From NCBI RefSeq assembly GCF_036370855.1, contig NC_088128.1, forward strand, positions 292,899 to 356,898: a DNA stretch of 64,000 nt, written 5' to 3'. A model generated the notes under the pieces. That model was not told the DNA's origin and searched no databases. It saw only the letters and a list, made by a program, of their open reading frames with translations. Source of the stretch: Dromaius novaehollandiae. Taxonomy: Eukaryota. Shown here one piece after another: positions 14,036 through 62,340 of the stretch (the first letter of the stretch is position 1; every line of letters begins with the position of its first letter). Position numbers and translations under genes: made by a program.

Positions 14036-14042
14036 GCCCCAC

Positions 14043-14211: not shown

Positions 14212-14289
14212 CTGCGCCGGGGCGGGGCGGGGGGGGGACAGGCGGCTAGCCAACGGCCCCCCCCGCTAGCCACAGGGCCCCCCCGCTAG

Positions 14290-15950: not shown

Positions 15951-16106
15951 CCAGCAGAACCGGGAAGGGCGGTGAGGCGGGAGAGACGCCAAGCAGGGCG
16001 ACGCAGCGCGCCGGGGCCCGTAACCGCGTGGGGGGGCCGGTAGCCACCCTAGGGTGCCGGTAGCCACCCGTGGGTGCCCGGTAGCCACCCGTGGGTGCCC
16101 GGGCAC

Positions 16107-16247: not shown

Positions 16248-16259
16248 CTGCGGGGGCAC

Positions 16260-18170: not shown

Positions 18171-18177
18171 CACGCAC

Positions 18178-18363: not shown

Positions 18364-18389
18364 CTGCGCCGCCGGCCACAGCGACGTCA

Positions 18390-37335: not shown

Positions 37336-37465
37336 TCACAGGAAGTAGTCGGCCACGGGCTTCTTGGAGGGGATGCCCCGGGTCTCCTGCGGCGCCGCCT
37401 CGAAGATGATGAACTCCTTCTGCAGGTGCTCGTCCAGCTCCAAGATGGCCGCCACGTTGCCGCAC
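37336..37465 (-). CDS. PPP4C: PPP4C last coding exon, including the stop codon
   Basis: Translation is (R)[42 protein letters not shown]. Apart from one residue it is identical to the human PPP4C C-terminus (…[27 protein letters not shown]). The stop TGA is at 37338..37336. Acceptor is ccggcag at 37466. Confidence 0.9.
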
Positions 37466-37479
37466 CTGCCGGGGGGGGG

Positions 37480-39960
37480 ACGGGTGACGGGGACGCCGAC
37501 GGGTCCCCACCGCGCGGTTGTGTCACCCGGTTGAGTGGCCCTGGTCGTGTCGCCCGATCGCTGGCCTTGGTCGTGTCACCCGACCCTGGTCATGTCAACC
37601 GGTTGAGTGGCCTTGGTCATGTCACCCGATCACGTCACCCAATCGAGTGGTCTCAGTCACGTCACCCGATCCCTGGTCTTGGTCGTGTCACCCGACCCTG
37701 GTCATGTCAACCGGTTGAGTGGCCTTGGTCGTGTCACCCAATCACGTCACCCAATCGAGTGGTCTCAGTCACGTCACCCGATCCCTGGTCTTGGTCGTGT
37801 CACCCGACCCTGGTCATGTCACCTGGTTGACTGGTCTGGGTCATGTCACCCAATCCCTGGCCTTGATCATGTCACCCAGACCTGCTCACGTCAACCGGTT
37901 GACTGGTCTTGGTCATGACACCCAAACATGTCACCCAATTGAGTGGTCTGGGTCGTGTCACCCAATCCCTGGCCTTGATCATGTCACCCAATCCTGGTCA
38001 TGTCACCCGGTTGAGTGGTCTGGGTCATGTCACCTGATCCTGGTCACGTCACCCAGTTGAGTGGCCTCAGTCATGTCACCTGATGCCTGGCCTTGGTCGT
38101 GTCACCCGACCCTGGTCATGTCACTCGGTTGAGTGGTCTGGGTCATGTCACCTGATCCTGGTCACGTCACCCAGTTGAGTGGCCTCAGTCATGTCACCTG
38201 ATGCCTGGCCTTGGTCGTGTCACCCAACCCTGGTCATGTCACCCAATCCCTGGCCTTGATCATGTCACCCAGACCTGCTCACGTCAACCGGTTGACTGGT
38301 CTTGGTCATGACACCCAAACATGTCACCCGATTGAGTGGTCTGGGTCGTGTCACCCAATCCCTGGCCTTGGTCATGTCACCCAGTCCTGGTCATGTCACC
38401 CGGTTGAGTGGTCTGGGTCATGTCACCTGATCCTGGTCACGTCACCCAGTTGAGTGGCCTCAGTCATGTCACCTGATCCCTGGCCTTGGTCGTGTCACCC
38501 AACCCTGGTCATGTCACCCAATCCCTGGCCTTGGTCATGTCACCCGACTCCGGTCATGTCACCTGGTTGACTGGTCTCGGTCATGTCACCCGATGCTGGG
38601 CCTGTCACCCGCTCCCTGGCCTTAGTCATGTCACCTGATCTTGGTCACGTCACCCAATCCCTGGCCTTAGTCATGTCACCCAACCCTGGTCCTGTCACCC
38701 AGTTGAGTGGTCTGGTCATGTCACCCGATCTGTGGCCTTTGTCATGTCACCCAATCCATGTCCCTGGAGCCCAGTCACGTCCCCAAGCCCTGGTGGCATC
38801 TCAGATCCCTGTCCTTGGTCACGTTATCCAATCCCACCCTTGGTCATGTCCCCTGATCCCCGGTGACATTTCAGAGCCCTGTCCTTGATCACGTCCCCCA
38901 ATCCCTGGTGACATCCGAGATCCCTGTCCTTGGTCACGTCCCTCGATCCCACTTTTGGTCACGTCCCCTGATCCCTGGTGGCATCTCAGAGCCCCATCCT
39001 CGGTCACGTCCCCCAATCCCACCCTTGGTGACGTCCCTGATCCCTGGTGGCATCTCAGAGCCCTGTCCTGGGTCACGTCCCCCAATCCCACCCTTGGTGA
39101 CATCCACGAGCCCTGGTGGCATCTCAGAGCCCCGTCCTTGGTGACGTCCCCCAATCCCACCCTTGGTGACGTCCCCAAGCCCTGGTGACATCTCAGAGCC
39201 CCGTCCTTGGTCACGTCCCCCAATCCCACCCTCGGTGACGTCCCCAAGCCCAGGTGACATCTCAGAGCCCCGTCCTTGGTCACGTTCCCTCATCCCTGGT
39301 GACATCCGAGATCCCTGTCCTTGGTCATGTCCCTCGATCTGACCCTCAGTGACGTCCCCGAGCCCAGGTGACATCTCAGGGCCCCGTCCTTGGTCACGTC
39401 CCCCGATCCCACCCTCGGTGACGTCCCCAAGCCCAGGTGACATCTCAGAGCCCCGTCCTTGGTCACGTCCCCCAATCCCACCCTCGGTGACGTCCCCAAG
39501 CCCAGGTGACATCTCAGAGCCCCATCCTTGGTCACGTCCCCCAATCCCACCCTCGGTGACGTCCCCAAGCCCAGGTGACATCTCAGAGCCCCGTCCTTGG
39601 TCACGTTCCCTCATCCCTGGTGACATCCGAGATCCCTGTCCTTGGTCATGTCCCTCGATCTGACCCTCGGTGACGTCCCCGAGCCCAGGTGACATCTCAG
39701 GGCCCCGTCCTTGGTCACGTTCCCTCATCCCTGGTGACATCCGAGATCCCTGTCCTTGGTCATGTCCCTCGATCTGACCCTCAGTGACGTCCCCAAGCCC
39801 AGGTGACATCTCAGGGCCCCGTCCTTGGTCACGTCCCCCGATCCCACCCTCGGTGACGTCACCTGATCCCACCCTTGGTCACGTCCCCTCACCCCTGGTG
39901 ACATCCCAGATCCCCGTCCTCGCTCACATCCCCCAACCCCGCCCCTCGGGGTGACATCCC
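37480..39960. repeat. Two arrays in a PPP4C intron
   Basis: From 37480 to 38760 the unit is about 110 bp (gtcacccgatccctggccttggtcgtgtcacccgaccctggtcatgtcaaccggttgagtggcc). From 38760 to 39960 the unit is 60 bp (ccttggtcacgtcccccaatcccaccctcggtgacgtccccaagcccaggtgacatctcagagccccgt). Confidence 0.85.
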
Positions 39961-40030
39961 CGAGCCCCGGTGCCACCGCCGCCACCCCCCGCGTGTCCCC
40001 ACGTGTCCCCGCGTGTCCCCGCGCCCTCAC

Positions 40031-40220
40031 CGGTAGCAGTAGTTGGGGGCCGACCAGACGGTGAGGACGGTCTCGCCGAAGTGCCACTTGTAGCCCTCCA
40101 TGACGAGCTGGTGGGCGCGGCAGATCATGTCGATGTCGTTGGCCGCGTTGAACTGGGCCACCACGTCGCTGCCGAAGAGGTACCCGGCGCCCCGCGGGGA
40201 CACGCCCCAGCCCGTGGTGT
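40031..40220 (-). CDS. PPP4C: PPP4C coding exon
   Basis: Translation is (D)[62 protein letters not shown](R). Apart from one residue it is identical to human PPP4C. Acceptor is cgcggcag and donor is CG|gtgaggg. Confidence 0.9.
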
Positions 40221-40229
40221 CTGCCGCGC

Positions 40230-42000
40230 GGGGCACACGCGTGTCAGGGACGCGGGGACAGGCCGTGGGGGGTCCCACACGCGTGGCAGGGCCCCGACAC
40301 CGCGAGAACCACCGTGGTGGGTCCCGTGCGCACGTCAACGTCCCACAACCACAAGACCAACCCGTGGTGGGTCCCGTGCGCACGTCAACACCACGTGGAT
40401 GCAGGAACCGGTCCCACACGCGTGTCAGGGACGCGGGGACAGGCCGTGGGGGGTCCCACACGCGTGGCAGAGCCCCACAACCGCGAGAACCACCGTGGTG
40501 GGTCCCGTGCGCACGTCAACGTCCCACAACCACAAGACCAACCCGTGGTGGGTCCCGTGCGCACGTCAACGCCACGTGGATGCAGGAACCGGTCCCACAC
40601 GCGTGTCAGGGACACGGGGACAGGCCGTGGGGGGTCCCACACGTGGGGCAGGGCTCCGACACCGCGAGAACCACCGTGGTGGGTCCCACGCGCACATCAA
40701 CGTCCCACAACCACAAGACCAACCCGTGGTGGGTCCCGCGCGCACGTCAACGCCACGTGGATGCAGGAACCGGTCCCACACGCGTGTCAGGGACGCGGGG
40801 ACAGGCCGTGGGGGGTCCCACACGCGTGGCAGGGCCCCGACACCGCGAGAACAACCGTGGTGGGTCCCGTGCGCACGTCAACGTCCCACAACCACAAGAC
40901 CAACCCGTGGTGGGTCCCGTGCGCACGTCAACGTCCCACAACCACAAGACCAACCCGTGGTGGGTCCCATGCGCACGTCAACGTCCCACAACCACAAGAC
41001 CAACCCGTGGTGGGTCCCGCGCGCACGTCAACGCCCCGTGGATGCAGGAACCGGTCCCACACGCGTGTCAGGGACGCGGGGACAGGCCGTGGGGGGTCCC
41101 ACACGCGTGGCAGGGCCCCGACACCGCGAGAACCACCGTGGTGGGTCCCACGCGCACGTCAACGTCCCACAACCACAAGACCAACCCGTGGTGGGTCCCG
41201 CGCGCACGTCAACGCCACGTGGATGCAGGAACCGGTCCCACACGCGTGTCAGGGACGCGGGGACAGGCCGTGGGGGGTCCCATACGCGTGGCAGGGCCCC
41301 GACACCGCGAGAACCACCGTGGTGGGTCCCACGCGCACGTCAACACCACGTGGACGTGGGAACCGGCCCGCGGTGGGTCCCACATGCGTGTCAGGGCCAC
41401 GTGACCATGGGAACTGGTCGTGGTGGGTCCCACACGTGTGTCAGGGCCACATGGTCATGGGAACCAGTCATGGGGGGTCCCACACGCGTGTCAGGGCCCA
41501 ACACTGTGAGAACCACCGTGGTGGGTCCCATGCACACGTCAACACCACGTGGACGTGGGAACCAGCCCGTGGTAGGTCCCACACGCGTGTCAGGGCCACG
41601 TGACCATGGGAACTGGTCGTGGTGGGTCCTGCACGCGTGTCAGGGCCACGTGACCACGGGAACCGGTCATGGTGGGTCCCACACGTGTGTCAGGGACACG
41701 GGGACAGGTCGTGGGGCGGTCCCACACGCGGGGCAAGGCTCCACCACCATGAGAACAACCCGTGGTGGGTCCCACACGCGTGTCAGGGCCACGTGGACAC
41801 GGGAACTGGCCTGTGGGGGGGTCCCACACGCGTGTCAGCACCACGTGGCCACGGGAACCAGCCCACATTGCGTCCCACACGCGTGACACAGGCGTGTCCA
41901 GGCCATATAACCCAACCCGTGGCGTCCCCCACCCGCGTGGCAGCACCCAGGGCCTCGGGGACGTCCCGCGTGCCCGTGGCGTGTCGGTGGCGTGTGCGTG
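40230..42000. repeat. Tandem array with a 181-bp unit in a PPP4C intron
   Basis: The unit is gggtcccgtgcgcacgtcaac...ggatgcaggaaccggtcccacacgcgtgtcagggacgcggggacaggccgtggggggtcccacacgcgtggcagggccccgacaccgcgagaaccaccgtggtg. The ORF-track offsets 40385, 40566 and 40747 confirm the 181-bp period. Confidence 0.85.
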
Positions 42001-42017
42001 GCGTGTGCGTGTCCTAC

Positions 42018-42144
42018 CTTCGGGGTCGGACCAGAGCAGGTCGCACATGGGGCCGTCGTGGGGCACCTCCTGCTTGCGGTCGATGGTGCGGATCTGGTCC
42101 AGCGTCTGGATGGAGGGCGAGAGGCCCCCGTGCACGCAGAAGAT
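42018..42144 (-). CDS. PPP4C: PPP4C coding exon
   Basis: Translation is [42 protein letters not shown](D). It is identical to human PPP4C. Acceptor is ggcgcag and donor is G|gtaggac. Confidence 0.9.
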
Positions 42145-42169
42145 CTGCGCCACACGCGTGCCCTTAGCG

Positions 42170-43235
42170 TGTGCTTGGCGTGTGCTTGGCGTGTGTAGCA
42201 CGCCCAGCCCCCAGGAGTGACGTGGCGCGACCCAAACGCCTTCAGGCAACACGGATGGACACGGGGAGGCACTGGGAGCCATGGCGGGACACACAACACG
42301 CATGTGCTTAGCATGTGCTTAGCGTGTGCAGCCCCCCAGGAGCGATGTGACGTGACCCAAACACCTCAGGGCAACACGGATGGACAGGGGGAGGCGCCAG
42401 GGGCCACGGTGGGACACACAACATGCATGTGCTTAGCATGTGCTGCACGCCCGGCCCCCCAGCAGCGACACGGCACGACCCAAACACCTCGGGGCAACAC
42501 GGATGGACACGGGGAGGCACCGGGAGCCATGGCAGGACACAACATCCATGTACTTAGCATGTGCTTAGCATGTGCTGCACGCCCAGCCCCCCAGGAGTGA
42601 CATGGCGTGACCCAAACACCTCCAGGCAATACGGATAGACACGGGGAAGCACTGGGAGCCATGGCGGGACACACAACACCCGTGTGCTTAGCGTGTGCTT
42701 AGCGTGTGCTGCACGCCTGGCCCCCCAGGAGCAACACGGCGCAACCCAAATGTCTCGGGGCAACATGGATGGACACGGGGAGGCATCAGGGGTCATGGCA
42801 GGACATGCAACACCCATGAACTTAGCGTGTGCTCAGCATGTGCAGCCCCCAAAAGTGACGTGGCGTGACGCAGACACCTCAGGGCAACACAGATGGACAC
42901 AGGGCAACACCAGGGGCCACGGCGGGACATGTAACACCCATGACCTTAACATGCGCTTAGCGTGTGCTTGGCATGTGCGGCACACGCAGGCCCCAGGAGT
43001 GACCCAAACGCCTCTGGGCAGCCCGGATGGACACAGGGGGGCACCAGGGGCCACGGCAGGACACGCAACCCCCCGGCGCTTAGTGTGTGCTTAGCATGTG
43101 CTTAGCATGTGCAGCCCCCAGAAGCGATGCAGCGCTACCCAAACGCCTCGGGGCAACACGGATGGACACAGGGAGCTGCCGGGGGCCACGGGGGGGACAC
43201 GCAACACCCGTGCGCTTAGCGTGTGCTTGGCGTGC
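42170..43235. repeat. Tandem array with a unit of about 120 bp (cgtgtgcttagcgtgtgctgcacgcc...gggcaacacggatggacacggggaggcac)
   Basis: The period runs 42296, 42417, 42536 and onward. Confidence 0.8.
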
Positions 43236-43242
43236 GGCCCAC

Positions 43243-43416
43243 CTTGCCGTCGATGATGGCGGAGAGGCTGAGGTAGTCGAAGATCTCGGTGCAGTAGCGC
43301 CAGACGGTGACGGAGCCGTACTTGCGCAGACACTCGTCGTAGAAGCCGTACACCTGCGTGATCTGCCGGCTCTCGTGGTTGCCCCGGATCAGCGTGATGC
43401 GGTCGGGGTAGCGCAC
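43243..43416 (-). CDS. PPP4C: PPP4C coding exon (metallophosphatase core, GNHE motif)
   Basis: Translation is [58 protein letters not shown]. It is identical to human PPP4C. Acceptor is gccgcag and donor is AAG|gtgggccgc. Confidence 0.9.
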
Positions 43417-43424
43417 CTGCGGCG

Positions 43425-44210
43425 CCGCACGCCTGGGTCCTCCCGGACGCCTGGGTCCTCCCGGACGCCTGGGCCCCGACTCCTCTCGCCCTCCCGGACG
43501 CCTGGGCCCTGACCCCTCTCGCCCTCCTGCATGTCTGGGTCCTCCCGCACGCCTGGGCCCCGACCCCGGACGCCTGGGCCCCCAGTGTTGTCCTCCCGGA
43601 CGCCTGGGCCCCTTCTCCTCTCGCCCTCCTGGACGCCTGGGCCCCTTCTCCTCTCGCCCTCCCGGACGCCTGGGCCCCTTCTCCTCTCGCCCTCCCGGAC
43701 GCCTGGGCCCCTTCTCCTCTCGCCCTCCCGGACGCCTGTGCCCCTTCTCCTCTCGCTCTCCCGGACGTCTGGGCCCCTTCTCCTCTCGCCCTCCCGGACG
43801 CCTGGGCCCCTTCTCCTCTCGCCCTCCCGGACGCCTGGGCCCCTTCTCCTCTCGCCCTCCCGGACGCCTGGGCCCCTTCTCCCAGACACCTGAGCCCCCT
43901 CTTGCCCCCCCTCCCCCGGCTGCCTGGGCCCCTCTCCCGGACGCCTGGGCCCTTTCTCTCCCTGGACACTTGGTGCCCACCTGGACGCCTGGGCCCCTCC
44001 CCTCGTCCTCCCGGATGCCTGGGCCCTCCATGGACACCTGGGTCCCTTCTCCCCCCGGACGCTTGGTGCCCACCTGGACGCCTGGGCCCCCTCTCCCGGA
44101 CGCCTGGGCCCCCTCTCACCCCGCCTGGCCGCCTGGGCCCCTCCCCTCGCCCTCCCGGACGCCTGGGCCCCCTCCCCCGGACGCCTGGGCCCCCTCCCCC
44201 GGACGCCTGG
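43425..44210. repeat. Minisatellite with a 33-bp unit (ccttctcctctcgccctcccggacgcctgggcc), a member of the CCGGACGCCTGGGCCC family
   Basis: About 20 copies are present. The core ccggacgcctgggccc also occurs at 47625-48885 and, reverse-complemented, at 61585-62340. Confidence 0.85.
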
Positions 44211-44216
44211 GCCCAC

Positions 44217-44318
44217 CTTGAGGGCGAGGAGCAGCAGGAAGGTCTCGACGCTGTAGAAGCCCCGGTCCACGAAGTCGCCCATGAACAGGTAGTTGGTCTC
44301 GGGGACGTCGCCCCCCAC
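44217..44318 (-). CDS. PPP4C: PPP4C coding exon (GDxVDRG motif)
   Basis: Translation is [34 protein letters not shown]. It is identical to human PPP4C. Acceptor is ccccccag and donor is AAG|gtgggc. Confidence 0.9.
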
Positions 44319-44324
44319 CTGGGG

Positions 44325-45175
44325 GGCAATTGGGGGGGGGCGATTAGGGAGGGGGGCAATTAGGGGCCGGGGGGGGCAATTAGGGGCCAGGGGGGGCAAT
44401 TAAGGGGGGTAATTGCAGACTATGGGGCAATTTGGGGGGTAATTAGGGCCAGAGAAAGCAATTGGGGGGGGTGATTTGAGGCTGGGGGGAGGCAATTAGT
44501 GATTGGGAGGGGCAATTAGGAGGGTAATTAACCCTGGGGGGGGCAATTAAGGGATGGGGGGGGCAATTGGGCGGTTATGTGGGGCTGAGGGAACAATTAG
44601 GAGGGTAATTAAGCCTGGGGGGGGCAATTGAGAGCCAGTGGGGTAATTGGGGGGGTTATTTGGGCCTAAGGGGACAATTAGGGGGGTAATTAGGCCCGGG
44701 GGGGGGGGCAATTAAGCATTGGGGGGGGGCAATTCAGACCCAGGGGGGCAATTGGGGGGGTTATGTGGGGCTGAGAGGACAATTAGGGGGGTAATTAGGG
44801 GCTCTGGGGCAATTAGGAATTGGCAGGGGCAACCGGGGGGGGGGTAATTAGGGGTTGGGGGGGCAATTAGGGGGATAATTGGGGGCAATTAGAGGCTGCG
44901 GGGGCAACTGGAGGAGCAACTAGGGGGTGGGGGGGGCAATTAGTGGGGGCAATTAGGGACTGGGGGGAACTGGGGGTAATGGGGGGGGGCAATTAAGAAC
45001 TCGGGGGGGGGGCAATTAGTGACCACAGGAGTAATTTAGGATCAGGGAAGCAATTACAGGAGCAATTAACAGTTGGGGGGCAATTAGGCCCTGGGTGGGG
45101 GCAATTAAACACCTGGGGGGGGCAATTAGGCATGGGGGGGGCAATTAAACACCTGGGGGGGGCAATTAGGGGGGG
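44325..45175. repeat. G-rich array based on ggggggcaattagg, unit about 20-30 bp
   Basis: gcaattag or gcaattgg occurs more than 30 times. Confidence 0.85.
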
Positions 45176-45183
45176 CGACTCAC

Positions 45184-45234
45184 CCGGAAAAGCTCCTTGA
45201 GGTCATAAAACTGCCCGTGGATGTCGCCGCACAC
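45184..45234 (-). CDS. PPP4C: PPP4C coding exon (GDxHG motif)
   Basis: Translation is [17 protein letters not shown]. It is identical to human PPP4C. Acceptor is ttccag and donor is CGG|gtgagtcgc. Confidence 0.9.
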
Positions 45235-45380
45235 CTGGAAGGGGGCAAAAAAGGGGACGTCAGGGGGGGCAAATCCGCCTAATTACCCCCCCCCAGGGCT
45301 TAATTACCCCCCTGGGGGGTTAATTACTCCCTCTAGGGTCTAATTGCCCCCCCCCGGGGGTCTAATTGCCCCCCGCTCAC

Positions 45381-45432
45381 CGTCACGGGCGAGTCGACCC
45401 GCTGGACGTTGCTCTCCTCCACCAGAATCTCC
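45381..45432 (-). CDS. PPP4C: PPP4C coding exon
   Basis: Translation is (R)EILVEESNVQRVDSPVT. It is identical to human PPP4C. Acceptor is tcccgcag and donor is ACG|gtgagcgg. Confidence 0.9.
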
Positions 45433-45559
45433 CTGCGGGACGGCGCCTCGTTAGCGGGGTTAATTGCCCCGCGGGGGGGTTAATTACCCCGCGGGGGGGT
45501 TATTCACCCCCTGGGGGGGTTATTTACCCCCTGGGGGGGTTCTTTGCCCCCCCCGGTAC

Positions 45560-45661
45560 CTGGCTTTGGCGCAGAGGGCCTTCACCTCGCTCTCCTTGAT
45601 GAGCTCGCAGCGGCGCAGCTGCTCGATCTGCCGGTCCAGGTCGCTCGGCTCCCCCATGGCC
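45560..45661 (-). CDS. PPP4C: PPP4C first coding exon (ATG at 45657..45655)
   Basis: Translation is [32 protein letters not shown](R), ending in donor AG|gtaccgg. Human has [33 protein letters not shown]. An acceptor-like cag at 45662-45664 suggests there is an upstream non-coding exon. Confidence 0.85.
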
Positions 45662-49024: not shown

Positions 49025-51995
<2,971 letters not shown>

Positions 51996-52001
51996 ACGTA
52001 C

Positions 52002-52201
52002 CAGGGCGCGCTTGACGTACTCCTCCTGGGCGGCCTTGGTGTTGTCGCGCTTGCCGCCCCAGGCGCGCAGGGCCGAGGCCTGCAGCGCCCGCCCGTAGGA
52101 GAAGGTCAGGGCCCAGGGCCGCCCCAGCGGGCAGCGGTTGATGGCGTTGAGGTTCAGCGACGCCTCCTCCTCGCTCTGGCCCCCGGACAGGAAGGTGATG
52201 C
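52002..52201 (-). CDS. ALDOA: ALDOA coding exon
   Basis: Translation is (G)[66 protein letters not shown]. It matches human [66 protein letters not shown]. Acceptor is cgcgcag and donor is CTG|gtacgtgg. Confidence 0.9.
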
Positions 52202-52204
52202 CTG

Positions 52205-54060
52205 CGCGGGGACACGGGGACGTCACGCCGGGGGGGGACGGGGACGCGGTGATGGGGACGTGGCCATGGGGACAGGGACATGGCCATGGGGACGTGCGGA
52301 TGGGGACCAGGACGTGGCCATGGGGACAGGATGGGAACCTGGACATGGCCATGGGGACGTGGGGATGGGGACCAGCACGTGGCCACAGAGACATAGCCAT
52401 GGGGATGGGGACGTGGCCATGGGGACAGGGAGGTGGCCATGGGGACGTGGGGATGGGGACCAGAACGTGGCCACAGGGACATAGCCATGGGGATGGGGAC
52501 GTGGCCATGGGGACAGGGACATGGTCATGGGGACGTGGGGATGGGGACCAGGACGTGGCCATGGGGACAGGATGGGAACCTGGACATGGCCATGGGGACG
52601 TGGGGATGGGGACCAGCACGTGGCCACAGAGACATAGCCATGGGGATGGGGACGTGGCCATGGGGATGGGGACATGGTCATGGGGACGTGGGGATGGGGA
52701 CCAGCACGTGGCCATGGGGACAGGATGGGAACCTGGACATGGCCACGTCCCCGTGGCCATGAGGACATGGGGACGGGGACCAGCACGTGGCCACAGGGAC
52801 GCAGCCATGGGGATGGGGACATGGCCATGGGGACGTGGCCATGTGGATGGGGACATGGCCATGGGGACAGGGAGGTGGCCGTGGCCATGGGGACCAGAAC
52901 ATGGCCACAGGGACATGGCCATGGGGATGGGGACACAGCCACGGGGACGCGGCCATGGGGACCAGGACACGGCTACAGGGACGTGGCCATGGAGACAGGA
53001 TGAGAACCTGGACGTGGCCATGGGGACGTGGCCATGGGGACAGGGAGGTGGCCATGGGGACGTGGGGATGGGGACCAGGACGCGGCCACAGGGATGCAGC
53101 GATGGGGACATGGTCATGGGGACAGGATGGGAACCTGGACATGGCCACGGGGACGTAGCCATAGGGATGGGGACATGGCCATGGGGACGTGGGGATGGGG
53201 ACCAGGACGCGGCCTTGGAGACATGGGGCGTGGCCATGGGGACAGGGAGGTGGCCATGGGGACAGGTACCAGGACGTGGCCACAGGGACGTGGTCATGGG
53301 GACGGGGACATGGCCATGGGGACACGGCCATGGGGACGGGATGAGAACCTGGCCATGGCCATGGGGACGTGGGGATGGAGACGTGGGGAAGGGGACCAGG
53401 ACGTGGCCACAGGGACGTGGTCATGGGGACAGGAAGGTGGCCATGGGGATGGGGAGATGGGGACAGAGCCATGGGGACCAGGACACAGCCACAGGGACAC
53501 GGCCATGGGGACAGGGACACGGGGACACAGTCCTGGGGACAGGAACATGGCCACGGGGACACAGCCAAGGGGACAGGAACGTGACATGGGGATGTGGCAT
53601 GGGGACACGGCCCTGGGGACAGGAACATGGCCACGGGGACACGGCCCTGGGGACACGACCATGCGGACACGGCCCTGGGGACAGGAACATGGCCACGGGG
53701 ACACGGCCATGGGGACATGGTCATGGTGACGGGGACATGGCCATGGGGACACAGCCCTGGGGACAGGAACGTGGCATGGGGACACGGCCCTGGGGACAGG
53801 AACGTGGCCACAGGGACACGGCCCTGGGGACACGACCATGGGGACAGGAATGCCACCACAAGGACACAGCCATGGCCATGGGGACAGAGGTGACATGGGG
53901 ACACAGCCATAGGCACACCAACAGCACGGTGACATGGCCAGGGGGTGGGACACAGCCCCGGGGACAGGGACACGGCCACGAGGACAGCACAGAGATGCCA
54001 CCACAGGGCCACCGCAGCAAGACGACCCCGACGCCATGACGCTGGTGTCCCCAGGGCCAC
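52205..54060. repeat. G-rich array with a unit of about 21 bp (ggacgtggccatggggacagg) and higher-order periodicity; it resumes at 54250-54325
   Basis: ggccatgggga occurs more than 60 times. Confidence 0.85.
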
Positions 54061-54069
54061 CGCGGCTCA

Positions 54070-55230
<1,161 letters not shown>

Positions 55231-55238
55231 TGACCGAC

Positions 55239-55399
55239 CTGCTGGCAGATGCTGGCGTAGCGGGCGAGGACGTTGGCGTTCTCCAGGATGGCCAGGCGCG
55301 ACGGCGTGTGCTCCGAGATCTTGAGGACGCAGCGCCACTTGGCGAAGTCGGCCCCGTCCTTCTTGTACTGGGCGCAGCGCTCCATCAGCCCGTCCAGGC
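55239..55399 (-). CDS. ALDOA: ALDOA coding exon
   Basis: Translation is (G)[53 protein letters not shown]. Human has [54 protein letters not shown]. Acceptor is cccag and donor is CAG|gtcggtca. Confidence 0.9.
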
Positions 55400-56385
55400 C
55401 TGGGCGCGCGGGGACACCGTGGGGACACGGCGGGGGGACACCGGGGCGGGGGACACGGCGGGGAACGTGCGGGGAGAGCCGCGGGGACGGCGGTGGGATC
55501 GCGTTGGGGATGGCGGTGGGGACGCAGGTGGCATTAGGGACATGGGGACGGCCTTGGGGACACAGGGAAGGTCTTGGGGACATGGAGGTGGCACAAGGGA
55601 CATGGGGACAGCCTTGGGGACACGGATAGCGGCGGGGAACGTGCGGGGAGAGCCACAGGGACGGTGGTGGGATCGCGGGGACGCAGGTGGCATTAGGGAC
55701 ATGGGGACAGCCTTGGGGACGCAGGGATGGCCTTGGGGACGTGCAGACAGCCTTGGGGACATGCAGGTAGCACATGGGACACAGTGACAGCCTTGGGGAC
55801 ACGGGTGGCCTCGGGGACACGGGGACGGCCTCAGGGACATAGAGATGGCATTGAAGACACAGGAATCATGTTGGTGACATGCAAGTACCATGTGGGACAC
55901 GGGGACAGCCTTGGGGACAGCTTTGGGGACACCGGCGGGGAATGTGCAGGCAGAGCCACGGAAATGGCATTGGGAACAGCCTTGGGGACATCGGGATGGC
56001 CTTGGGGACACGAGGACAGCCTTGGGGACGTGGGGACAGCGCTGGGGACGCGGAGGAGGCACGGGGGACGTGGGGACGGCCTCGGGGACACGGGGACGGC
56101 CGCGGGGACACACACGCACACGACTAGGGACACGGGGAGGCCGACGAGGACACAGAGACAACGTTGGCCACCGCTCGGGGACACAAGGACCCCCTCGGGG
56201 ACCTGGGGACCCCCTTGGGGACACAAAGACCCCCTTGGGGACACGGGGAAGCCCTTGGGGACCTCCTGAGGACCTGGGGACCCCTCGGGGACACTTGGTC
56301 ACCCTCAGGGAGACCCTTGTGGACCCACCAAGGACCCGGGGACACCCTTGGGGACCTGGGGACACCTTTGGGGACGGTCACGCAC
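55400..56385. repeat. G-rich array with a short unit (ggggacacggggacggccttggggaca)
   Basis: ggggac(a/g) and ccttgggga are repeated many times. Confidence 0.8.
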
Positions 56386-56440
56386 CTTGGGTGGTGGTCT
56401 CGCCATTGGTGCCAGCGAGGGGGACGACCCCTTTGTCCAC
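56386..56440 (-). CDS. ALDOA: ALDOA coding exon (55 nt)
   Basis: Translation is VDKGVVPLAGTNGETTTQ(G). It is identical to human ALDOA. Acceptor is cctag and donor is G|gtgcgtgac. Confidence 0.9.
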
Positions 56441-56444
56441 CTAG

Positions 56445-58535
56445 GAGGGGACATGGGGACACGGTCACCGGGAGCCCCAATGTCCCCCCCAACGTCCCTC
56501 GGACCCGCAGCCACCGCTGTCCCCAGGTCCCCTCTGTCCCCACGTCCCCTCTGTGCCCCATCTCCGTGTCCCCCTGATGTCCCCAAGTCTCCCTGAGCTT
56601 GTTCCACCCCAAATTCCCATGTCCCTTCATGTCCCCCAATGTCCCCTCAACGTCTCCACGTTCCCCAACGTCCCTGTGGCTCTTCCATGTCCCCCAATGT
56701 CCCCTCAACATCTCCATGTCCCCCAGTGTCCCTGCAGCCCTTCCACGTGCCCCAATGTCCCCTCAACGTCTCCATGTCCCCCAGTGTCCCCTCAATGTCT
56801 CCATGTCCCCCAATGTCCCTGCGGCCCTTCCACGTGCCCCAACGTCCCCTCAATGTCTCCATGTCCCCCAGTGTCCCCTCAACGTCTCTACGTCCCACAT
56901 CCCTGTGTCCCCTCAACATCTCCACGTCCTCCAACGTCCCTGTGGCCCTTCCATGTCCCCCAATGTCCCCTCAACGTCTCCATACCCAACGTCCCTGTGT
57001 CTTCTCAACTTCTCCATGTCCCCCAATGTCCCTGTGGTCCTTCCACGTCCCCCAATGTCCCCTCAATGTCTCCACGTCCCCCAACATCCCTGAGTCTTCT
57101 CAACTTCTCCATGTCCCCCAATGTCCCTGTGGCCCTTCCACCTCTCCACGTCCCCCAACGTCCCCTCAATGTCTCCACGTCCACCATCCCTGTGTTCCCT
57201 CAACATCTCCACGTCCCTGTGGCCCTTCCATGTCCCCCAGCGTCCCCTCAACATCTCCACGTCCCACAACGTCCCCTCAACGTCTCCACAACATCTCCAC
57301 GTCTCCTAACATCCCTGCGTGCTTTCTATGTCCCCTCAAGCTCCCTTCAATGTCTCCACGTCCCCCAACGCCCCCTCAACGTCTCCACGTCCCCCAACGT
57401 CCCCTCAACGTCTCCACGTCCCACACCCCTGCGTCCCCTCAACGTCTCCACGTCCCCCAACGTCCCCTCAACGTCTCCACGTCCCCCAACGTCCCCCCTC
57501 AACGTCTCCACGTCCCCTCAATGTCTCCACGTCCCCCAACGTCCCCTCAACCTCTCCACGTCCCCCAACGTCCCCTCAACGTCTCCACGTCCCACAACGT
57601 CCCCTCAACGTCTCCACGTCCCACATCCCTGCGTCCCCTCAACGTCTCCACGTCCCCCAACGTCCCTTCAACGTCTCCACGTCCCCTCAATGTCTCCACG
57701 TCCCCCAACGTCCCCTCAACGTCTCCACGTCCCACATCCCTGCGTCCCCTCAACATCTCCGCGTCCCCCAACGTCCTTGTGACCCTTCCACGTCCCCCAA
57801 CGTCCCCTCAACGTCTCCACGTCCCCCAACGTCCCCTCAACGTCTTCATGTCCCCCAACGTCCCCTCAACGTCTCCACGTCCCCCAATGCCCCCTCAACG
57901 TCTCCACGTCCCACATCCCTGTGTCCCCTCAACATCTCCGCGTCCCCCAATGTCCCTGTGACCCTTCCACGTCCCCCAACGTCCCCTCAACCTCTCCACG
58001 TCCCCCAATGCCCCCTCAACCTCTCCACGTCCCACATCCCTGCGTCCCCTCAACATCTCCGCGTCCCCCAATGTCCCTGTGACCCTTCCACGTCCCCCAA
58101 CGTCCCCTCAACGTCTCCACGTCCCCCAGTGTCCCCTCAACATCTCCACGTCCCACATCCCTGCGTCCCCTCAACATCTCTGCGTCCCCCAACGTCCTTG
58201 TGACCCTTCCACGTCCCCCAACGTCCCCTCAACGTCTCCACGCCCCCCAATGTCCCCCGTCTTCACGTCCCCCAACGTCCCCTCAACGTCTCCACGTCCC
58301 CCAACGTCTCAACGTCTCCACATCCCCTCAACGTCCCCTCAACGTCCCCTCAACGTCTCCACGTCCCCTCAACGTCTCCACGTCCCCCAATGTCCCCTCA
58401 ACCTCTCCACGTCCTCCAACGTCCCCTCAACCTCTCCGCGTCCCACATCCCTGCGTCCCCTCAACATCTCCGCGTCCCCCAACGTCCTTGTGACCCTTCC
58501 GCGTCCCCCAACGTCCCCCCCCGCGTCCCCGTGCC
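56445..58535. repeat. Minisatellite with a unit of about 30 bp (cccctcaacgtctccacgtcccccaacgt)
   Basis: More than 60 copies are present. The array is C-rich on the plus strand. Confidence 0.85.
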
Positions 58536-58538
58536 CAC

Positions 58539-58750
58539 CTTGATGCCGACGAGGCCGCCCTTGGCGCGGATGACGGCGGGGAAGGGGCGCCCGTCGTCCG
58601 CCTTCTGGTAGAGGGTCTCGTGGAAGAGGATGACGCCGCCGATGCAGGGGTCCACGCGCTGGTCGGCCGTGAAGAGCAGCTGCCGGTACCAGCGCCGGTT
58701 CTCCTCCGTGTTCTCCGCCCCCACCGAGCTCAGCCGCTTGGCGATGCTGC
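58539..58750 (-). CDS. ALDOA: ALDOA coding exon
   Basis: Translation is (G)[70 protein letters not shown]. Human ALDOA has [70 protein letters not shown]. This segment rules out ALDOC. Acceptor is cccggcgcag and donor is AAG|gtgggcac. Confidence 0.9.
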
Positions 58751-58754
58751 CTGC

Positions 58755-60200
58755 GCCGGGGACGCCCGCGTCACCCCCCCCGGGGGCCACCGCGGGGTCC
58801 CCGCGGCCACCCGGGGCCACCCAGGACCCCCCAGTGTCATCTGCCGTCGCTGCCATCGCCCATGGCCACCTTGGTGGAACCCGTGCTCTTGTTGCGCCTA
58901 CTTCTGCCAAGGTTTGCAGGGCTCCCGGTGGCCCCTGGGGCCACCCAGTGTCACCTCATGGCACCTGGGGCCACCCAAGACCCTCTAGTGTCACCTCATG
59001 GCACCTGGGGCCACCCAAGACCCTCCGGTGGCACCCGGTGGCACCTGCCATCGCCCATGGCCACCTTGGTGGCACCCATCCTCTTGTTGCACCTACCGCT
59101 GCCAAGGCTCCCAGTGCTCCCAGTGACACCTGGGGCCACCTTGGGTCACCCAGTGTCACCTCATGGCACCTGGGGCCACCCAGGACCCCCCAATGTCACC
59201 TGATGGCAGCCGGGGCCACCCAGGACCCTCCGGTGGCACCCGGTGGCACCTGCCATCGCCCATGGCCACCTTGGTGGCACCCATCCTCTTGTTGCACCTA
59301 CCGCTGCCAAGGCTCCCAGTGCTCCCAGTGACACCTGGGGCCACCCAGGACCCTCCAGTGTCACCCAATGGCACCTGGGGTCACCCAGGACCCCCCAGGG
59401 TCACCTGATGGCACCTGCCATCACCCATGGCCACCTTGGTGGCACCCGTCCTCCTGCTGCACCTACTGCTGCCAGGGTTTGCAGGGCTCCCAGTGCTCCC
59501 AGTAGCACCTGGGGCCACCCAGTGGTGTCCCAGTACCAACTGGGGTCACCCCGTGGCACCTGGGGTCACCCCATGTCTCCTTGGTGCCACCCTGAGGTCA
59601 CCTGATGTCACCCGGTGCCACCCAATAGCACTTGGGGCCACGCAGTGCCCTCCCAGTGTCACCCAGTGTCCTCCTAGTCCCCTCCCAGTGCCCTCCCAGT
59701 GTCACCCAGTGTCCTCCCAGTAGCTTCAAGTGCCAGCTGCTGCCCCCCAGTGCTCTCCCAGTGCCTCCCAGTCCCCCCCAGTGCCTCCCAATTCCCTCCC
59801 AGTGCTCCCAGTCCCTTCCCAGTGCTTCCCAGTTCCCTCTGATCATCTCCCAGTGCCTTCCCAGTGCTTCCTGCTACCTCCCAGTGTCACTCAGTGTTCT
59901 CCAAGTCACTCCCAATCCCCTCCCAGTGCTCCCAGTGCCTTCCAGTCCTCTCCTGGTGCCACCCAGTGCTCCCCAGTCCCCTCCAAGTGCCCCCCAATCC
60001 CTTCCCAGTGCCTCCCACTACTCCCCAGTTCCCCCTAGTCCCCTCCCAGTGCTCCCAGTGCCCTCCAATCCCTTCCCAGTCCCTTCCCAGTGCCTCCCAC
60101 TACACCCCAATGCCACCCAATTCCCCCCAGTGCCCTCCGGGCACCCCCCAGCCCCTTCCAGTGCCCCCCAAACCCCTCCCAGTGCCTCCCAGTGCTCCCA
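58755..60200. repeat. Arrays based on ggggccacccaggaccc / cacctgggg, about 60 bp, then on ccctcccagtgcc, about 12 bp
   Basis: The ccagtgcctccc 12-mer continues into the next array. Confidence 0.8.
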
Positions 60201-61460
60201 GTGCCTCACCAGTGGACTCATCAGCGGCGAGGATGCCCTTGCCGGGGGCGACGATGCGCAGGGCGACGGCGGCGAGCTCCCCCAGTGCCTCCCAGTGCCT
60301 CCCAGTGCCCTCTAAACCCCTCCCAGTGCCCTCCAAACCCCTCCCAGTCCCCTCCCAGTGCCCTCCCAGTGCTCCCAGTGCCTCACCAGTGGACTCATCG
60401 GCGGCGAGGATGCCCTTGCCGGGGGCGACGATGCGCAGGGCGATGTCGGCGAGCTCCCCCAGTGCCTCCCAGTGCCTCCCAGTGCCCCCCAAACCCCTCC
60501 CAGTGCCCCCCAAACCCCTCCCAGTCCCCTCCCAGTGCCTCCCAGTGCTCCCAGTGCCTCACCAGTGGACTCATCGGCGGCGAGGATGCCCTTGCCGGGG
60601 GCGACGATGCGCAGGGCGATGTCGGCGAGCTCCCCCAGTGCCTCCCAGTGCCCTCTAAACCCCTCCCAGTGCCCCCCAAACCCCTCCCAGTCCCCTCCCA
60701 GTGCCTCCCAGTGCTCCCAGTGCCTCACCAGTGGACTCATCGGCGGCGAGGATGCCCTTGCCGGGGGCGACGATGCGCAGGGCGATGTCGGCGAGCTCCC
60801 CCAGTGCCTCCCAGTGCCTCCCAATGCCCCCCAAACCCCTCCCAGTGCCCCCCAAACCCCTCCCAGTGCCTCCCAGTGCTCCCAGTGCCTCACCAGTGGA
60901 CTCATCGGCGGCGAGGATGCCCTTGCCGGGGGCGACGATGCGCAGGGCGATGTCGGCGAGCTCCCCCAGTGCCTCCCAGTGCCTCCCAGTGCCCTCTAAA
61001 CCCCTCCCAGTGCCCCCCAAACCCCTCCCAGTGCCCTCCAAACCCCTCCCAGTGCCCCCCAAACCCCTCCCAGTCCCCTCCCAGTGCCTCCCAGTGCTCC
61101 CAGTGCCTCACCAGTGGACTCATCGGCGGCGAGGATGCCCTTGCCGGGGGCGACGATGCGCAGGGCGATGTCAGCGAGCTTCCCCAGTGCCTCCCAGTGC
61201 CTCCCAGTGCCCCCCAAACCCCTCCCAGTGCCCCCAAACCCCTCCCAGTGCCCTCCAAACCCCTCCCAGTGCCCTCCCAGTGCTCCCAGTGCCTCACCAG
61301 TGGACTCATCGGCGGCGAGGATGCCCTTGCCGGGGGCGACGATGCGCAGGGCGATGTCGGCGAGCTCCCCCAGTGCCTCCCAGTGCCTCCCAATGCCCCC
61401 CAAACCCCTCCCAGTGCCCCCCAAACCCCTCCCAGTGCCTCCCAGTGCTCCCAGTGCCTC
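60200..61460. repeat. ALDOA: Tandem array of about 165-217 bp holding seven truncated copies of the 3' end of the ALDOA first coding exon, each with an intact 5' splice site
   Basis: Copies lie at about 60204, 60381, 60558, 60723, 60888, 61105 and 61292. In each copy the minus strand reads [24 protein letters not shown]|gtgaggc, with minor variants in copies 1 and 6. The ATG and acceptor are absent, and ccagtgcctccc 12-mers flank each copy. Confidence 0.85.
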
Positions 61461-61462
61461 AC

Positions 61463-61582
61463 CAGTGGACTCATCGGCGGCGAGGATGCCCTTGCCGGGG
61501 GCGACGATGCGCAGGGCGATGTCGGCGAGCTCCTTCTTCTGCTCGGGGCTCAGCGCCGGGTACTGGTGCGGCATGGCGGCTC
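61463..61582 (-). CDS. ALDOA: ALDOA first coding exon (ATG at 61574..61572)
   Basis: Translation is [37 protein letters not shown](G). Human ALDOA has [38 protein letters not shown]. Acceptor is cccccgcag at 61583 and donor is G|gtgaggc at 61462. Confidence 0.9.
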
Positions 61583-61584
61583 CT

Positions 61585-62340
61585 GCGGGGGCCCAGGCGT
61601 CCGGGGAATCGCCCTCGTCCCCCCCCCCCCGAACCAACCCCGTGGGCCCAGGCGTCCGGGCAACACCTCCCCCCCCCCCTTTCTGGGGCCCAGGCGTCCG
61701 GGAAGAGGGGGTAAAGGGGCCCAGGTGTCCGGGGGGGGCGAAAGGGGCCCAGGCGTCCGGGAAGGGGGGGTAAATGGGCCCAGGCGTCCGGGGAAGGGAG
61801 GGGGGAGATGGGCCCAGGCGTCCGGGGAAGGGAGGGGGGAGATGGGCCCAGGCGTCCGGGCAAGGGAGGGGGGAGATGGGCCCAGGCGTCCGGGCAAGGG
61901 AGGGGAGACAGGATGGGCCCAGGCGTCCGGGGAAGGGAGGGGGGACAGGATGGGCCCAGGCGTCCGGGGTGGGGAAGGGGGGGGGGGCGGGGAAGGGCCC
62001 AGGCGTCCGGGTTGGGGAAGTCACCCTGGCCGGGGAAGGGGCCCAGGCGTCCGGGCCGGGCTCGGGGTGCGGTCAAGGGCGGAGAGCGAGGGCGGGACCC
62101 AGGCGTCCGGGTGGGGGGGGGGGGGGCGAGAAAGGGCCCAGGCGTCCGGGGAGGGACCCAGGCGTCCGGGTGGGGGGGGCAAGAAAGGGCCCAGGCGTCC
62201 GGGGAGGGACCCAGGCGTCCGGGTTGGGGGGGCGGGGGGGGAGGCGGAAGGGGCCCAGGCGTCCGGCAGGGAGCCCCAAGGGCGTCTCAAGGGCAGCGAG
62301 AAGGGCCCAGGCGTCCGGGCAGGGCTCCCTTCCCCCCCCT
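61585..62340. repeat. Array based on gggcccaggcgtccgg(g/a)gaagggagggggga, the reverse complement of the CCGGACGCCTGGGCCC family
   Basis: gggcccaggcgtccgg occurs about 20 times. It is the inverse-oriented copy of the arrays at 43425 and 47625. Confidence 0.85.

Follow-up and report, generated by a model that had tools for sequence, protein, structure and literature searches.

Seven partial copies of the first coding exon and its 5′ splice site in intron 1 of emu ALDOA, a probable case of exon stuttering

Exon stuttering was defined by Hron et al. (Genome Biol Evol 2026, PMC12954441) in a screen of chicken only, which found it in 115 genes and 236 introns, with 190 of the 236 introns located on dot chromosomes. 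The repeated exon parts in chicken are 20–187 bp long and occur in 1–44 copies, more than 90% of them adjoin an exon border, and the introns that contain them are repeat-rich; a shuffled control set the published bit-score threshold at 42.1 (PMC12954441). Intron length variability is one of the three hallmark features of exon stuttering, and 183 of the 192 stuttering introns (95%) that passed the chicken length-variation screen varied in length (PMC12954441). Comparable chicken structures were verified with raw nanopore reads, and the same authors had already remarked that copied splice sites could give rise to alternatively spliced transcripts (PMC12954441). Chicken ALDOA lies on dot chromosome 38 (chr38) together with PPP4C and is shown in Supplementary Figure 5 of that paper, in images from which the stuttering exon is not readable (PMC12954441).

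Here we characterized an array at the ALDOA locus of the emu (Dromaius novaehollandiae) within a window of 64,000 nucleotides, the whole stretch of DNA that was analyzed, which belongs to a contig of 3.3 Mb and has a GC content of 0.59–0.73. The 8 coding exons of ALDOA mapped to 61574..49025 on the minus strand and the protein spliced from the window was identical to emu XP_064355584.1, in agreement with the preliminary description, which had named the gene and placed its genuine ATG exon at 61463..61582. TRF covered 81% of the window and 74–98% of each ALDOA intron, but 0% of exons 2–8. In the non-repeat islands at 1–37 kb of the window, only exons of an SNF2-type ATPase were recognizable. 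Naming of genes in the same 1–37 kb by the longest ORF per non-repeat island was rejected, as it gave mostly wrong frames in GC-rich DNA.

On the minus strand, 60204..61582 held the ATG exon of ALDOA and then, in the downstream intron, seven further GAGCTC...CCACTG^GTGAGG copies (copy number as assembled; a caret marks a boundary; Table 1). The preliminary description had reported that the 3′ end of exon 1 and its donor are amplified seven times downstream, that each copy keeps an intact GTGAGG donor and that the amplification boundary falls at GAGCTC inside the exon, and the present analysis agreed with it on each of these points. The 9-mer CTG^GTGAGG was common to all eight donors, and comparison of the units placed the boundary at G^GAGCTC within exon 1. 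The copies had also been called pseudo-exon fragments on the grounds that they carry neither the ATG nor an acceptor, and we found that the first 50 nt of the exon are missing from them as well. The measurements, however, had to be revised. Units had been given as uniformly about 177 bp long, but the spacings between successive units, from the exon outward, were 165, 186, 218, 165, 166, 176, and 177 bp (range 165–218 bp). The exon-derived part of each copy was 70 nt, or 71 nt counting one ambiguous G, instead of 72 nt, and the last Gly codon of the source segment is completed by the GT of the intron. The donor positions listed earlier corresponded roughly to the ends of GTGAGG and not to the GT, the starts of which are given in Table 1.

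Table 1. Coordinates in the window of the ALDOA exon 1 array and neighboring features.
Feature	Position	Strand	Remarks
Genuine first coding (ATG) exon of ALDOA	61463..61582	-	ATG at 61574; acceptor cag^ at 61583; 3′ end ...GAGTCCACTG
Copied source segment, last 70 nt of the ATG exon, GAGCTC...CCACTG	61463..61532	-	encodes 23 residues + G
Real 5′ splice site GTGAGG	61457..61462	-	9-mer CTG^GTGAGG; GT starts at 61462
Copy 1, exon fragment + GTGAGG	61292..61367	-	76/76 identical to source; GT starts at 61297
Copy 2	61106..61181	-	2 substitutions (AAGCTCGCT...); GT starts at 61111
Copy 3	60888..60963	-	76/76 identical; GT starts at 60893
Copy 4	60723..60798	-	76/76 identical; GT starts at 60728
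Copy 5	60557..60632	-	76/76 identical; GT starts at 60562
Copy 6	60381..60456	-	76/76 identical; GT starts at 60386
Copy 7, distal edge of the array	60204..60279	-	most diverged, 3 substitutions (GAC>GCC, ATC>GTC, GCC>GCT); GT starts at 60209
Degenerate CACTGGGAGG 10/21-bp minisatellite distal to the array	59640..60203	-	TRF: period 10, 55.5 copies
Intron 1, 2712 nt	58751..61462	-	98% tandem repeat; 45% G on sense strand
ALDOA coding exon 2	58539..58750	-	acceptor gcag^GCAGCATCGCC, partner of the real donor

Five of the seven copies (1, 3, 4, 5, and 6) showed 100% identity to the exon source, and copies 2 and 7 carried private substitutions. The most diverged copy was the one at the array edge, as is usual for arrays homogenized by unequal exchange, and its spacer ran into an older, degenerate minisatellite. 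The 165-bp unit 3 was 100% identical to unit 0, the unit that holds the real exon. Differences between units were mainly in the count of 10/21-bp subrepeats.

To identify stuttering, we applied the published screen to the ALDOA exons (blastn-short, matches of at least 20 nt). Exon 1 gave seven proximal matches of 69–71 nt and 117–141 bits, compared with the published threshold of 42.1, covering exon positions 50–120 of 120, and no copies of the other ALDOA exons were found by the same blastn-short screen. Every match stopped at the last exon base (position 120/120), with the copies themselves continuing into GTGAGG and the spacer. The best score among 140 shuffled introns was 24.3 bits. The seven-copy structure is far beyond chance, because its matches scored 117–141 bits against this shuffled maximum and all of them ended at the exon border. 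In every respect that could be tested, the emu array conformed to exon stuttering: seven direct copies of exon positions 50–120 follow in the downstream intron, the block that was copied extends across the exon–intron junction and includes the splice site, and TRF coverage of the intron is 98%.

Two of the units were 100% identical over 165 bp in a region that is both GC-rich and G4-rich, and regions of this type are described in abstracts on the subject and in PMC12954441 as difficult targets for sequencing and assembly. For this reason, the array itself or the number of its copies might be an artefact of assembly, with fewer or no copies at the true locus. We consider such an error improbable. 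The spacings and the subrepeat make-up differed among the units and copies 2 and 7 had substitutions of their own, which argues against false duplication, since that would yield identical units. The array measures only ~1.3 kb, a length that a single long read would be expected to span. Comparable chicken structures were nanopore-verified (PMC12954441), and an analogous structure was present in the independent guinea fowl assembly.

The arrangement of the copies could also be that of tandemly duplicated alternative exons, either mutually exclusive or cassette, as they stand in tandem and in the same orientation, each with a good donor, and keep an open reading frame. A 342-aa ORF ran through two units, and the unit lengths 165, 186, and 177 are multiples of 3. 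The idea that the units preserve a reading frame was nevertheless rejected: those of 218, 166, and 176 bp shift it, and the ORF terminates in unit 3. The copies lack the initial 50 nt of the exon, including the ATG, each has purine-rich, G-rich minisatellite upstream of it, and there was no conservation across the birds examined. The absence of acceptors effectively refutes the alternative-exon reading.

The setting of the array within intron 1 pointed to its source. The array is built of higher-order units in which the spacer is the CACTGGGAGG minisatellite, and the unit of that minisatellite closely resembles the junction CCACTG^GTGAGG. The degenerate stretch distal to copy 7 is presumed to be older intron sequence from which the spacers came. 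The sense strand of intron 1 contained 31 G4 motifs and the antisense strand 0, and the density of the ACTGGG motif in emu ALDOA was 35/kb in intron 1 vs 0.4/kb in the rest of the gene. Among the options raised in the preliminary description, a satellite seeded from an exon–intron junction is the one we favor, given an intron that is almost entirely tandem repeat and a spacer minisatellite that resembles the junction.

The preliminary description had also proposed that other species be checked for the same amplification. We compared the ALDOA loci of ostrich, rhea, three Anatidae (duck), black swan, crane, cuckoo, pheasant, and guinea fowl, plus gecko. The emu array was absent from all ten other bird ALDOA loci, including those of the palaeognaths ostrich and rhea, and from the gecko locus. 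Its absence from the ten bird loci means that the array is not conserved, and it is lineage-specific. The exon segment was single-copy in ostrich, rhea, the three Anatidae assemblies, black swan, crane, cuckoo, pheasant, and gecko. At the ten other ALDOA loci, too, an acceptor lies a few nt 5′ of the ATG. A set of 24 apparent exon copies in rhea was rejected because the tblastn HSP that served as query reached 123 nt too far into the intron, and only this intronic portion was matched.

In the same intron of the guinea fowl, the acceptor and the first 25 nt of exon 2 were duplicated twice (145–153 bits), an amplification on the acceptor side that is independent of the emu array. GAGCTC was present at the breakpoint in both the emu (exon 1) and the guinea fowl (exon 2). 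We took this common motif as coincidence and rejected it as meaningful; the emu copies are preceded by minisatellite and not by exon 2 sequence. The length of intron 1 was 1249, 2240, and 3163 nt in the three Anatidae assemblies, which encode an identical ALDOA protein, and this shows rapid change among close relatives but is not a within-emu measure.

An orientation-specific ACTGGG(A/G)GG minisatellite filled ALDOA intron 1 at 11 of 11 bird loci (emu included), with 20–49 motifs/kb in intron 1 vs 0–0.7/kb elsewhere in the gene, and was absent in gecko ALDOA. It started within ~10 nt of the donor at ten bird loci and ~40 nt downstream, after a G-run, in rhea. The ACTGGG(A/G)GG unit resembles the conserved junction CCACTG^GTG(A/G)G. 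A broader reading, to which we give a low probability, is that ALDOA intron 1 is a site-specific hotspot at which exon stuttering recurs among birds. On this reading, the resemblance to the conserved donor junction, found in all the bird loci, suggests that the junction has been re-seeding the minisatellite since before the palaeognath–neognath split. Larger captures would then have occurred independently in emu (donor side, 7), guinea fowl (acceptor side, 2), and chicken (published list), and a transcription-coupled G4 or R-loop template switch would be at work at a single junction of this very highly transcribed gene. In addition, the eight donors of identical context might be used and might generate +55/+117 aa isoforms or NMD substrates, and with the donors in use the locus would be a natural experiment in 5′ splice-site choice.

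We consider it highly probable that the emu ALDOA array is a case of exon stuttering, produced as a by-product of local tandem-repeat instability affecting the introns of GC-rich genes on avian dot chromosomes. Its origin is best explained by a recent duplication involving the exon and the G-rich CACTGGGAGG minisatellite, for which we infer the following order of events and molecular mechanism. Intron 1 would at the start already have carried the orientation-specific, G4-prone CACTGGGAGG minisatellite from the donor on. A single event of slippage or template switching in the emu lineage would have fused the minisatellite (…CACTGGGG) to the interior of the exon (GAGCTC…), creating a ~165-bp unit in which 70 nt of exon are followed by the donor and a spacer. 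Replication slippage, unequal sister-chromatid exchange, or gene conversion could then have expanded and homogenized this unit to seven extra copies, and continued 10/21-bp slippage may have altered the spacer lengths. As the array has been homogenized, the microhomology at the original breakpoint (1–5 nt, G/GGA/GGAGC) is irretrievable.

The copies are most likely non-functional passengers that are probably neutral, and nothing was found that points to a function. The competing view is that the pseudo-donors form a functional U1-binding or decoy 5′ splice-site array in ALDOA, acting through NMD-coupled unproductive splicing, through isoforms expanded at the N-terminus by 55 or 117 aa, or through U1 protecting or boosting transcription. 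All eight donors have CTG^GTGAGG in common, and at five pseudo-donors the 70 nt upstream and ~50 nt downstream are identical in context, so U1 binding is expected to be as strong there as at the real site. Use of donor 1 would add 165 nt in frame (+55 aa) with a predicted product of 419 aa, use of donor 2 would add 351 nt in frame (+117 aa) with a predicted product of 481 aa, and use of donors 3–7 is predicted to lead to a premature stop at codon 192. There were zero substitutions in five copies, and their perfect identity could reflect selection on the copies instead of recent origin or gene conversion. The potential of copied splice sites for alternative transcripts was remarked on by Hron et al. 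(PMC12954441).

We nevertheless regard a functional array as quite unlikely. The extra donor sites are not conserved, as they were absent at the ten other bird ALDOA loci. The sense strand of intron 1 lacked the poly(A) hexamers AATAAA, ATTAAA, AGTAAA, and TATAAA, and protection by U1 against premature polyadenylation would thus be without an obvious substrate. The pseudo-exons have no upstream acceptor, and the GGGGAG^C site put forward in the preliminary description had only 30% pyrimidines in the upstream 20 nt, compared with 50–80% at the real acceptors of ALDOA. Both of these earlier ideas are disfavored. The best candidate AG lies within each exon copy (CCCCCGGCAAG^G, 65% pyrimidines) and would define a 28-nt pseudo-exon; as this reads on into a TGA, it is unlikely to play a productive role.

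The predicted proteins were sought as well. A search of 5.8 billion proteins with the read-through (exon 1–spacer–copy 1–spacer–copy 2) returned no match that spanned the repeat, and its top matches were ordinary aldolase N-termini. No protein or ORF had spacer-encoded peptides or the duplicated segment, which speaks only mildly against their existence, with no sign that emu transcripts are represented in the collection and the emu protein on record from NCBI and UniRef only. In the NCBI annotation, two accessions shared an identical 364-aa product and neither was labeled as an isoform, a faint indication that the +55 and +117 aa forms are not prominent. An insertion beside the conserved AADES segment would probably harm the enzyme.

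Since most pseudo-donors do not differ from the real site between -70 and ~+50 nt, the real donor is probably chosen by its position (exon definition): no other donor has an acceptor 120 nt upstream of it. In classical cis-competition experiments, with all donors occupied, the donor nearest the acceptor wins. This nearest-donor rule would predict some use of the pseudo-donors, counter to exclusive use of the real donor.

Exon stuttering as a class is already published (chicken, 2026), with ALDOA listed and the remark on alternative transcripts included. The emu array extends the phenomenon to a palaeognath, as a lineage-specific event that is not found in ostrich or rhea. ALDOA intron 1 was affected independently in emu and guinea fowl, and chicken ALDOA is listed by gene with the exon unspecified. 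The array is an unusually clean example, with eight 5′ splice sites, most of them identical in local context over >100 nt, in an essential, highly expressed gene, and these shared contexts make it a convenient natural substrate for the study of donor choice by the spliceosome. It is also suited to measuring mutation dynamics with long reads. At the first coding exon, such structures can lead both gene prediction and short-read mapping astray.

The emu array has features in common with several known systems. Like competing or decoy 5′ splice sites and intronic U1 sites (telescripting), it places several equally strong U1-complementary sites before one acceptor; in contrast to those, the emu sites are known from sequence, are recent and limited to one lineage, and are accompanied by none of the listed poly(A) hexamers. 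As in tandem exon duplication, exon-derived sequence with donors is duplicated within the gene in the same orientation, but the emu copies are a 3′ fragment, have no acceptors, do not keep the frame from unit to unit, and are not conserved. The likeness to minisatellite or VNTR higher-order repeats is closer. There are two levels of repetition, with 10/21-bp subrepeats in 165–218-bp units, the inner units are near-identical and the edge unit diverged, and length is set by the number of subrepeats; the emu unit differs in having captured 70 nt of coding exon with a splice donor, and the array has the live exon itself at one end. From exon stuttering as described in chicken (PMC12954441) the array differs in that the emu is a palaeognath and that ostrich and rhea are without it. 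It matches that class in the direct repetition of a lateral exon part with its splice site in the adjacent intron, in a source that adjoins the exon border, in a host intron that is nearly all tandem repeat, and in a GC-rich, G4-prone setting. Its 70 nt and 7 copies are within the published ranges, and ALDOA itself is on the chicken list (PMC12954441).

On its minus strand, the array region is the 5' part of the aldolase A gene (ALDOA). A tblastn search with a human ALDOA protein sequence located eight coding exons on this strand between 61574 and 49025, with canonical GT-AG at every coding-exon border (exon 3 ends at 56386). The spliced emu product was identical at 364/364 residues to XP_064355584.1 and XP_064355585.1 (Dromaius novaehollandiae, 3.3-Mb contig). 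The ATG exon has its acceptor a few nucleotides upstream of the ATG, at a position equivalent to that in the other ten ALDOA loci. Intron 5 (54246-54330, between the …VTEKV and LAAVYK… exons) is short and repeat-filled, with a length in emu of 85 nt, not a multiple of 3. Two predicted proteins, from Cygnus atratus (P0122) and Eudyptes pachyrhynchus (P0136), are 391 and 390 aa long and have a Pro/Val/Ser-rich insertion of ~26-27 aa; in these swan and penguin predictions the equivalent of intron 5 appears to be retained in frame. Beyond PPP4C, the downstream neighbour, come exons of an SNF2-family ATPase; their match is to the C-terminal part of a fused ALDOA prediction from zebra finch (P0152, PF00176), and the encoded ATPase looks SRCAP-like.

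Positions of the features in the emu window and, for guinea fowl, in its ALDOA locus (L009, Numida meleagris, GCA_002078875.2)
Feature	Position	Strand	Detail
ALDOA ATG exon	61582..61463	minus	acceptor cag|GAGCCGCCATG; 3' end ...GAGTCCACTG|GTGAGG
Real GAGCTC…GTGAGG block	61532-61457	minus	fuzzy pattern search
Seven intronic block starts	61367, 61181, 60963, 60798, 60632, 60456, 60279	minus	fuzzy pattern search
GT of pseudo-donors 1-7	61297, 61111, 60893, 60728, 60562, 60386, 60209	minus	copied donors, numbered from the real exon outward
PPP4C	45657..37339	minus	downstream of ALDOA
SNF2-family ATPase exons	about 2200-20500	minus	beyond PPP4C; e.g. 4213-4488 encoding GPHLIIVPTSVMLNWEMELKRW…
Guinea fowl exon 2 copies	2206-2290, 2418-2502		145-153 bits, period ~212-220 bp; real exon 2 start 2698

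A fuzzy pattern search found the 76-nt block GAGCTC…CCACTGGTGAGG eight times on the minus strand, once at the real exon and seven times downstream within the intron. Five of the seven copies equalled the exon at 76/76 positions, copy 2 carried two substitutions and copy 7 three. The blocks were spaced by 165, 186, 218, 165, 166, 176 and 177 bp, and Tandem Repeats Finder (TRF) recovered this array too, at periods 165, 177, 218 and 383. The screen published for exon stuttering (blastn-short with the dust filter off, each exon against the introns of its gene) returned seven matches of 69-71 nt and 117-141 bits, all with the ATG exon as source, the adjacent intron as location and the exon's last base as end. 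Since the maximum in a shuffled-intron control was 24.3 bits (20 shuffles x seven introns), the array is confirmed beyond chance. Both searches bear out the seven intronic copies of exon end and donor reported in the preliminary description, which described a real array well. Its 72 nt of exon measured 70 nt (71 with one ambiguous G), its uniform unit of about 177 bp proved to vary from 165 to 218 bp, and its donor coordinates are corrected to the GT positions in the table.

In each unit, 70 nt of exon precede a 95-148-nt spacer, which is made wholly of CACTGGGAGG and GGTTTGGGGGG-CACTGGGAGG subrepeats and whose end CACTGGGG adjoins the next GAGCTC. The units differed from each other almost entirely in subrepeat number. 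The unit beginning in the real exon and unit 3 showed 100% identity over 165 bp; the distal unit 7 was the most diverged, and its spacer passed into ~560 bp of degenerate CACTGGGAGG minisatellite. An array with a uniform interior, a diverged edge and an end anchored in a live exon is typical of expansion and homogenisation by slippage or unequal exchange. An artefact of assembly is unlikely because both the length and the subrepeat content vary between units and because private substitutions are seen in two copies.

With G at 45% of its sense-strand positions, intron 1 shows canonical G4 motifs 31 times on that strand and 0 times on the antisense strand. GC content is 59-73% across the window, and TRF coverage is 81% of the 64 kb, with 74-98% in the ALDOA introns and 0% in exons 2-8. 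Non-repeat islands of at least 80 nt in the window coincided with ALDOA and PPP4C exons, so that being 'not tandem repeat' comes close to an exon predictor in this region. Upstream of the ATG exon, at 61583-62330 on the minus strand, lies a separate tandem array with units of ~17-53 bp containing CCCGGACGCCTGGGCCC, the last of which directly adjoins the acceptor (…ccggacgcctgggcccccgcag|GAGCC). Because no acceptor or exon sequence is copied in it, this array is intron-only stuttering. Further upstream of ALDOA, a long 20/40/81-bp tandem array (CCCCAAATCTGCCCCC…) occupies 62366-63819 on the plus strand, its matches reaching 93% at period 80-81.

We compared the ALDOA loci of ostrich, Rhea pennata, three Anatidae assemblies, black swan, crane, common cuckoo, guinea fowl, pheasant and gecko. 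Protein-level and nucleotide-level screens found no extra copies of ATG-exon fragments in any of these ten bird loci or in gecko, and the same amplification in other species, suggested as a check in the preliminary description, was thus not seen among them. This places the amplification in the emu lineage alone, later than its divergence from rhea and ostrich. Apparent copies in the nucleotide screen of rhea were intronic only, the tblastn HSP used having over-extended into the intron.

The repeat beside the donor was more widely shared. In 11/11 bird loci, the ACTGGG density of intron 1 was 20-49 per kb, compared with 0-0.7 per kb in the remainder of the gene, and the motif hardly ever lay on the other strand; in gecko, intron 1 (550 nt, non-repetitive) contained 0. 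An ACTGGG(A/G)GG-type minisatellite started within ~10 nt of the donor in 10/11 bird loci, and in rhea ACTGGG-containing units began ~40 nt downstream of the donor, past a G-run. This orientation-specific minisatellite fills intron 1 in all 11, which span palaeognaths, Galloanserae and Neoaves. Its unit and the conserved junction CCACTG|GTG have CACTGG in common, which suggests, as we infer from this likeness, that the exon-intron junction gave rise to the small repeat too. Intron 1 measured 2240, 3163 and 1249 nt in the three duck assemblies (L003, L004 and L005), with an identical ALDOA protein of 364 aa, which shows that its length shifts fast among close relatives.

In guinea fowl, stuttering arose independently and on the acceptor side: intron 1 carried two extra copies of a stretch that runs from ~60 nt of intron through the acceptor into exon 2, of which it takes in the first 25 nt (GCAGCATCGCCAAGCGGCTGAGCTC). 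A third match in this locus (8951-9020), to the 3'-terminal 70 nt of exon 2, lies beyond an N gap and may be a scaffolding artefact. In the galliforms, tandem CTCCCAGTG units close the intron that precedes the ATG exon. Guinea fowl has ~six (685-732, L009) and pheasant two or three (375-410, L010), and a CCCAG acceptor-like site is present in every unit. As CTCCCAGTG is the downstream CACTGGGAG minisatellite in reverse complement, inverted repeats stand on either side of the galliform ATG exon and could pair in the pre-mRNA. No such CTCCCAGTG-type inverted arrangement is present in emu.

The structure of the emu array is directly observed. For its origin we propose that a G4-prone minisatellite already lay next to the donor, and that …CACTGGGG became linked to GAGCTC within the exon through one microhomology-mediated slip or template switch. 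The product would be a unit of ~165 bp, which would then have grown via slippage or unequal sister-chromatid exchange, and gene conversion would hold the copies identical to the exon. We consider this account as a whole, joining of minisatellite and exon followed by unit expansion and conversion, very probable, although the event order and mechanism are what we infer.

The array probably has no function. The real donor and pseudo-donors 1 and 3-6 are identical from -70 to about +50, and position is the sole cis feature that sets the real one apart. The pseudo-donors might act as decoy or alternative donors; NCBI annotates a single 364-aa product with no isoform labels, which argues weakly against prominent alternative products. 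Exon definition is the likely basis of donor choice here, because the real donor alone sits 120 nt downstream of an acceptor. Conceptually, use of pseudo-donors 1 or 2 with the intervening sequence retained gives in-frame products of 419 or 481 aa, and use of pseudo-donors 3-7 leads to a stop at codon 192. The cryptic GGGGAG|C acceptor suggested in the preliminary description has 30% upstream pyrimidines versus 50-80% at real ALDOA acceptors. Among the array's AGs, the best falls within each exon copy (CCCCCGGCAAG|G, 65% pyrimidines) and would define a 28-nt pseudo-exon running, by our reading of the frame, into a stop codon. The proposed U1 protection against premature polyadenylation lacks a visible substrate, with 0 occurrences of AATAAA, ATTAAA, AGTAAA and TATAAA in intron 1. 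That intron 1 is a junction-seeded recurrent hotspot and that its donors are also actually used is, taken jointly, improbable. The emu array is a clean natural setting in which to test 5' splice-site choice.

A full-text literature search for 'exon stuttering' returned only Hron et al. (Genome Biol Evol 2026, PMC12954441), who named the class 'sequence stuttering' or 'exon stuttering'. Their chicken screen gave 115 genes, 236 introns and 1,345 matches, with 190/236 stuttering introns on dot chromosomes (PMC12954441). For emu ALDOA, a dot-chromosome location is only implied. The copied exon parts are 20-187 bp with 1-44 copies per expansion, the source lies 1 base or less away from the exon's border in >90%, the host introns are heavily repetitive, and among chickens 95% of the stuttering introns passing the length-variation screen differ in length (PMC12954441). 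The authors propose G4 or replication stress with repair, or meiotic gene conversion, and state outright that copying of splice sites 'creates potential alternatively spliced transcripts' (PMC12954441). Chicken ALDOA (chr38:2050188-2105567) and PPP4C are both among the 115 genes of their Supplementary Figure 5, and local expansions in other birds are mentioned without detail (PMC12954441). Copies of PPP4C exons, a gene on that chicken list (PMC12954441), were absent from the emu window. On every criterion tested in this analysis the emu array agrees with exon stuttering: it is proximal, direct and tandem, adjoins the exon border, has scores that exceed the threshold and lies in a repeat-rich intron. 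The array is real, and emu ALDOA, with seven copies on the donor side, belongs to this class published in early 2026. It brings exon stuttering to a palaeognath, and ALDOA intron 1 has been struck repeatedly and independently in different lineages.
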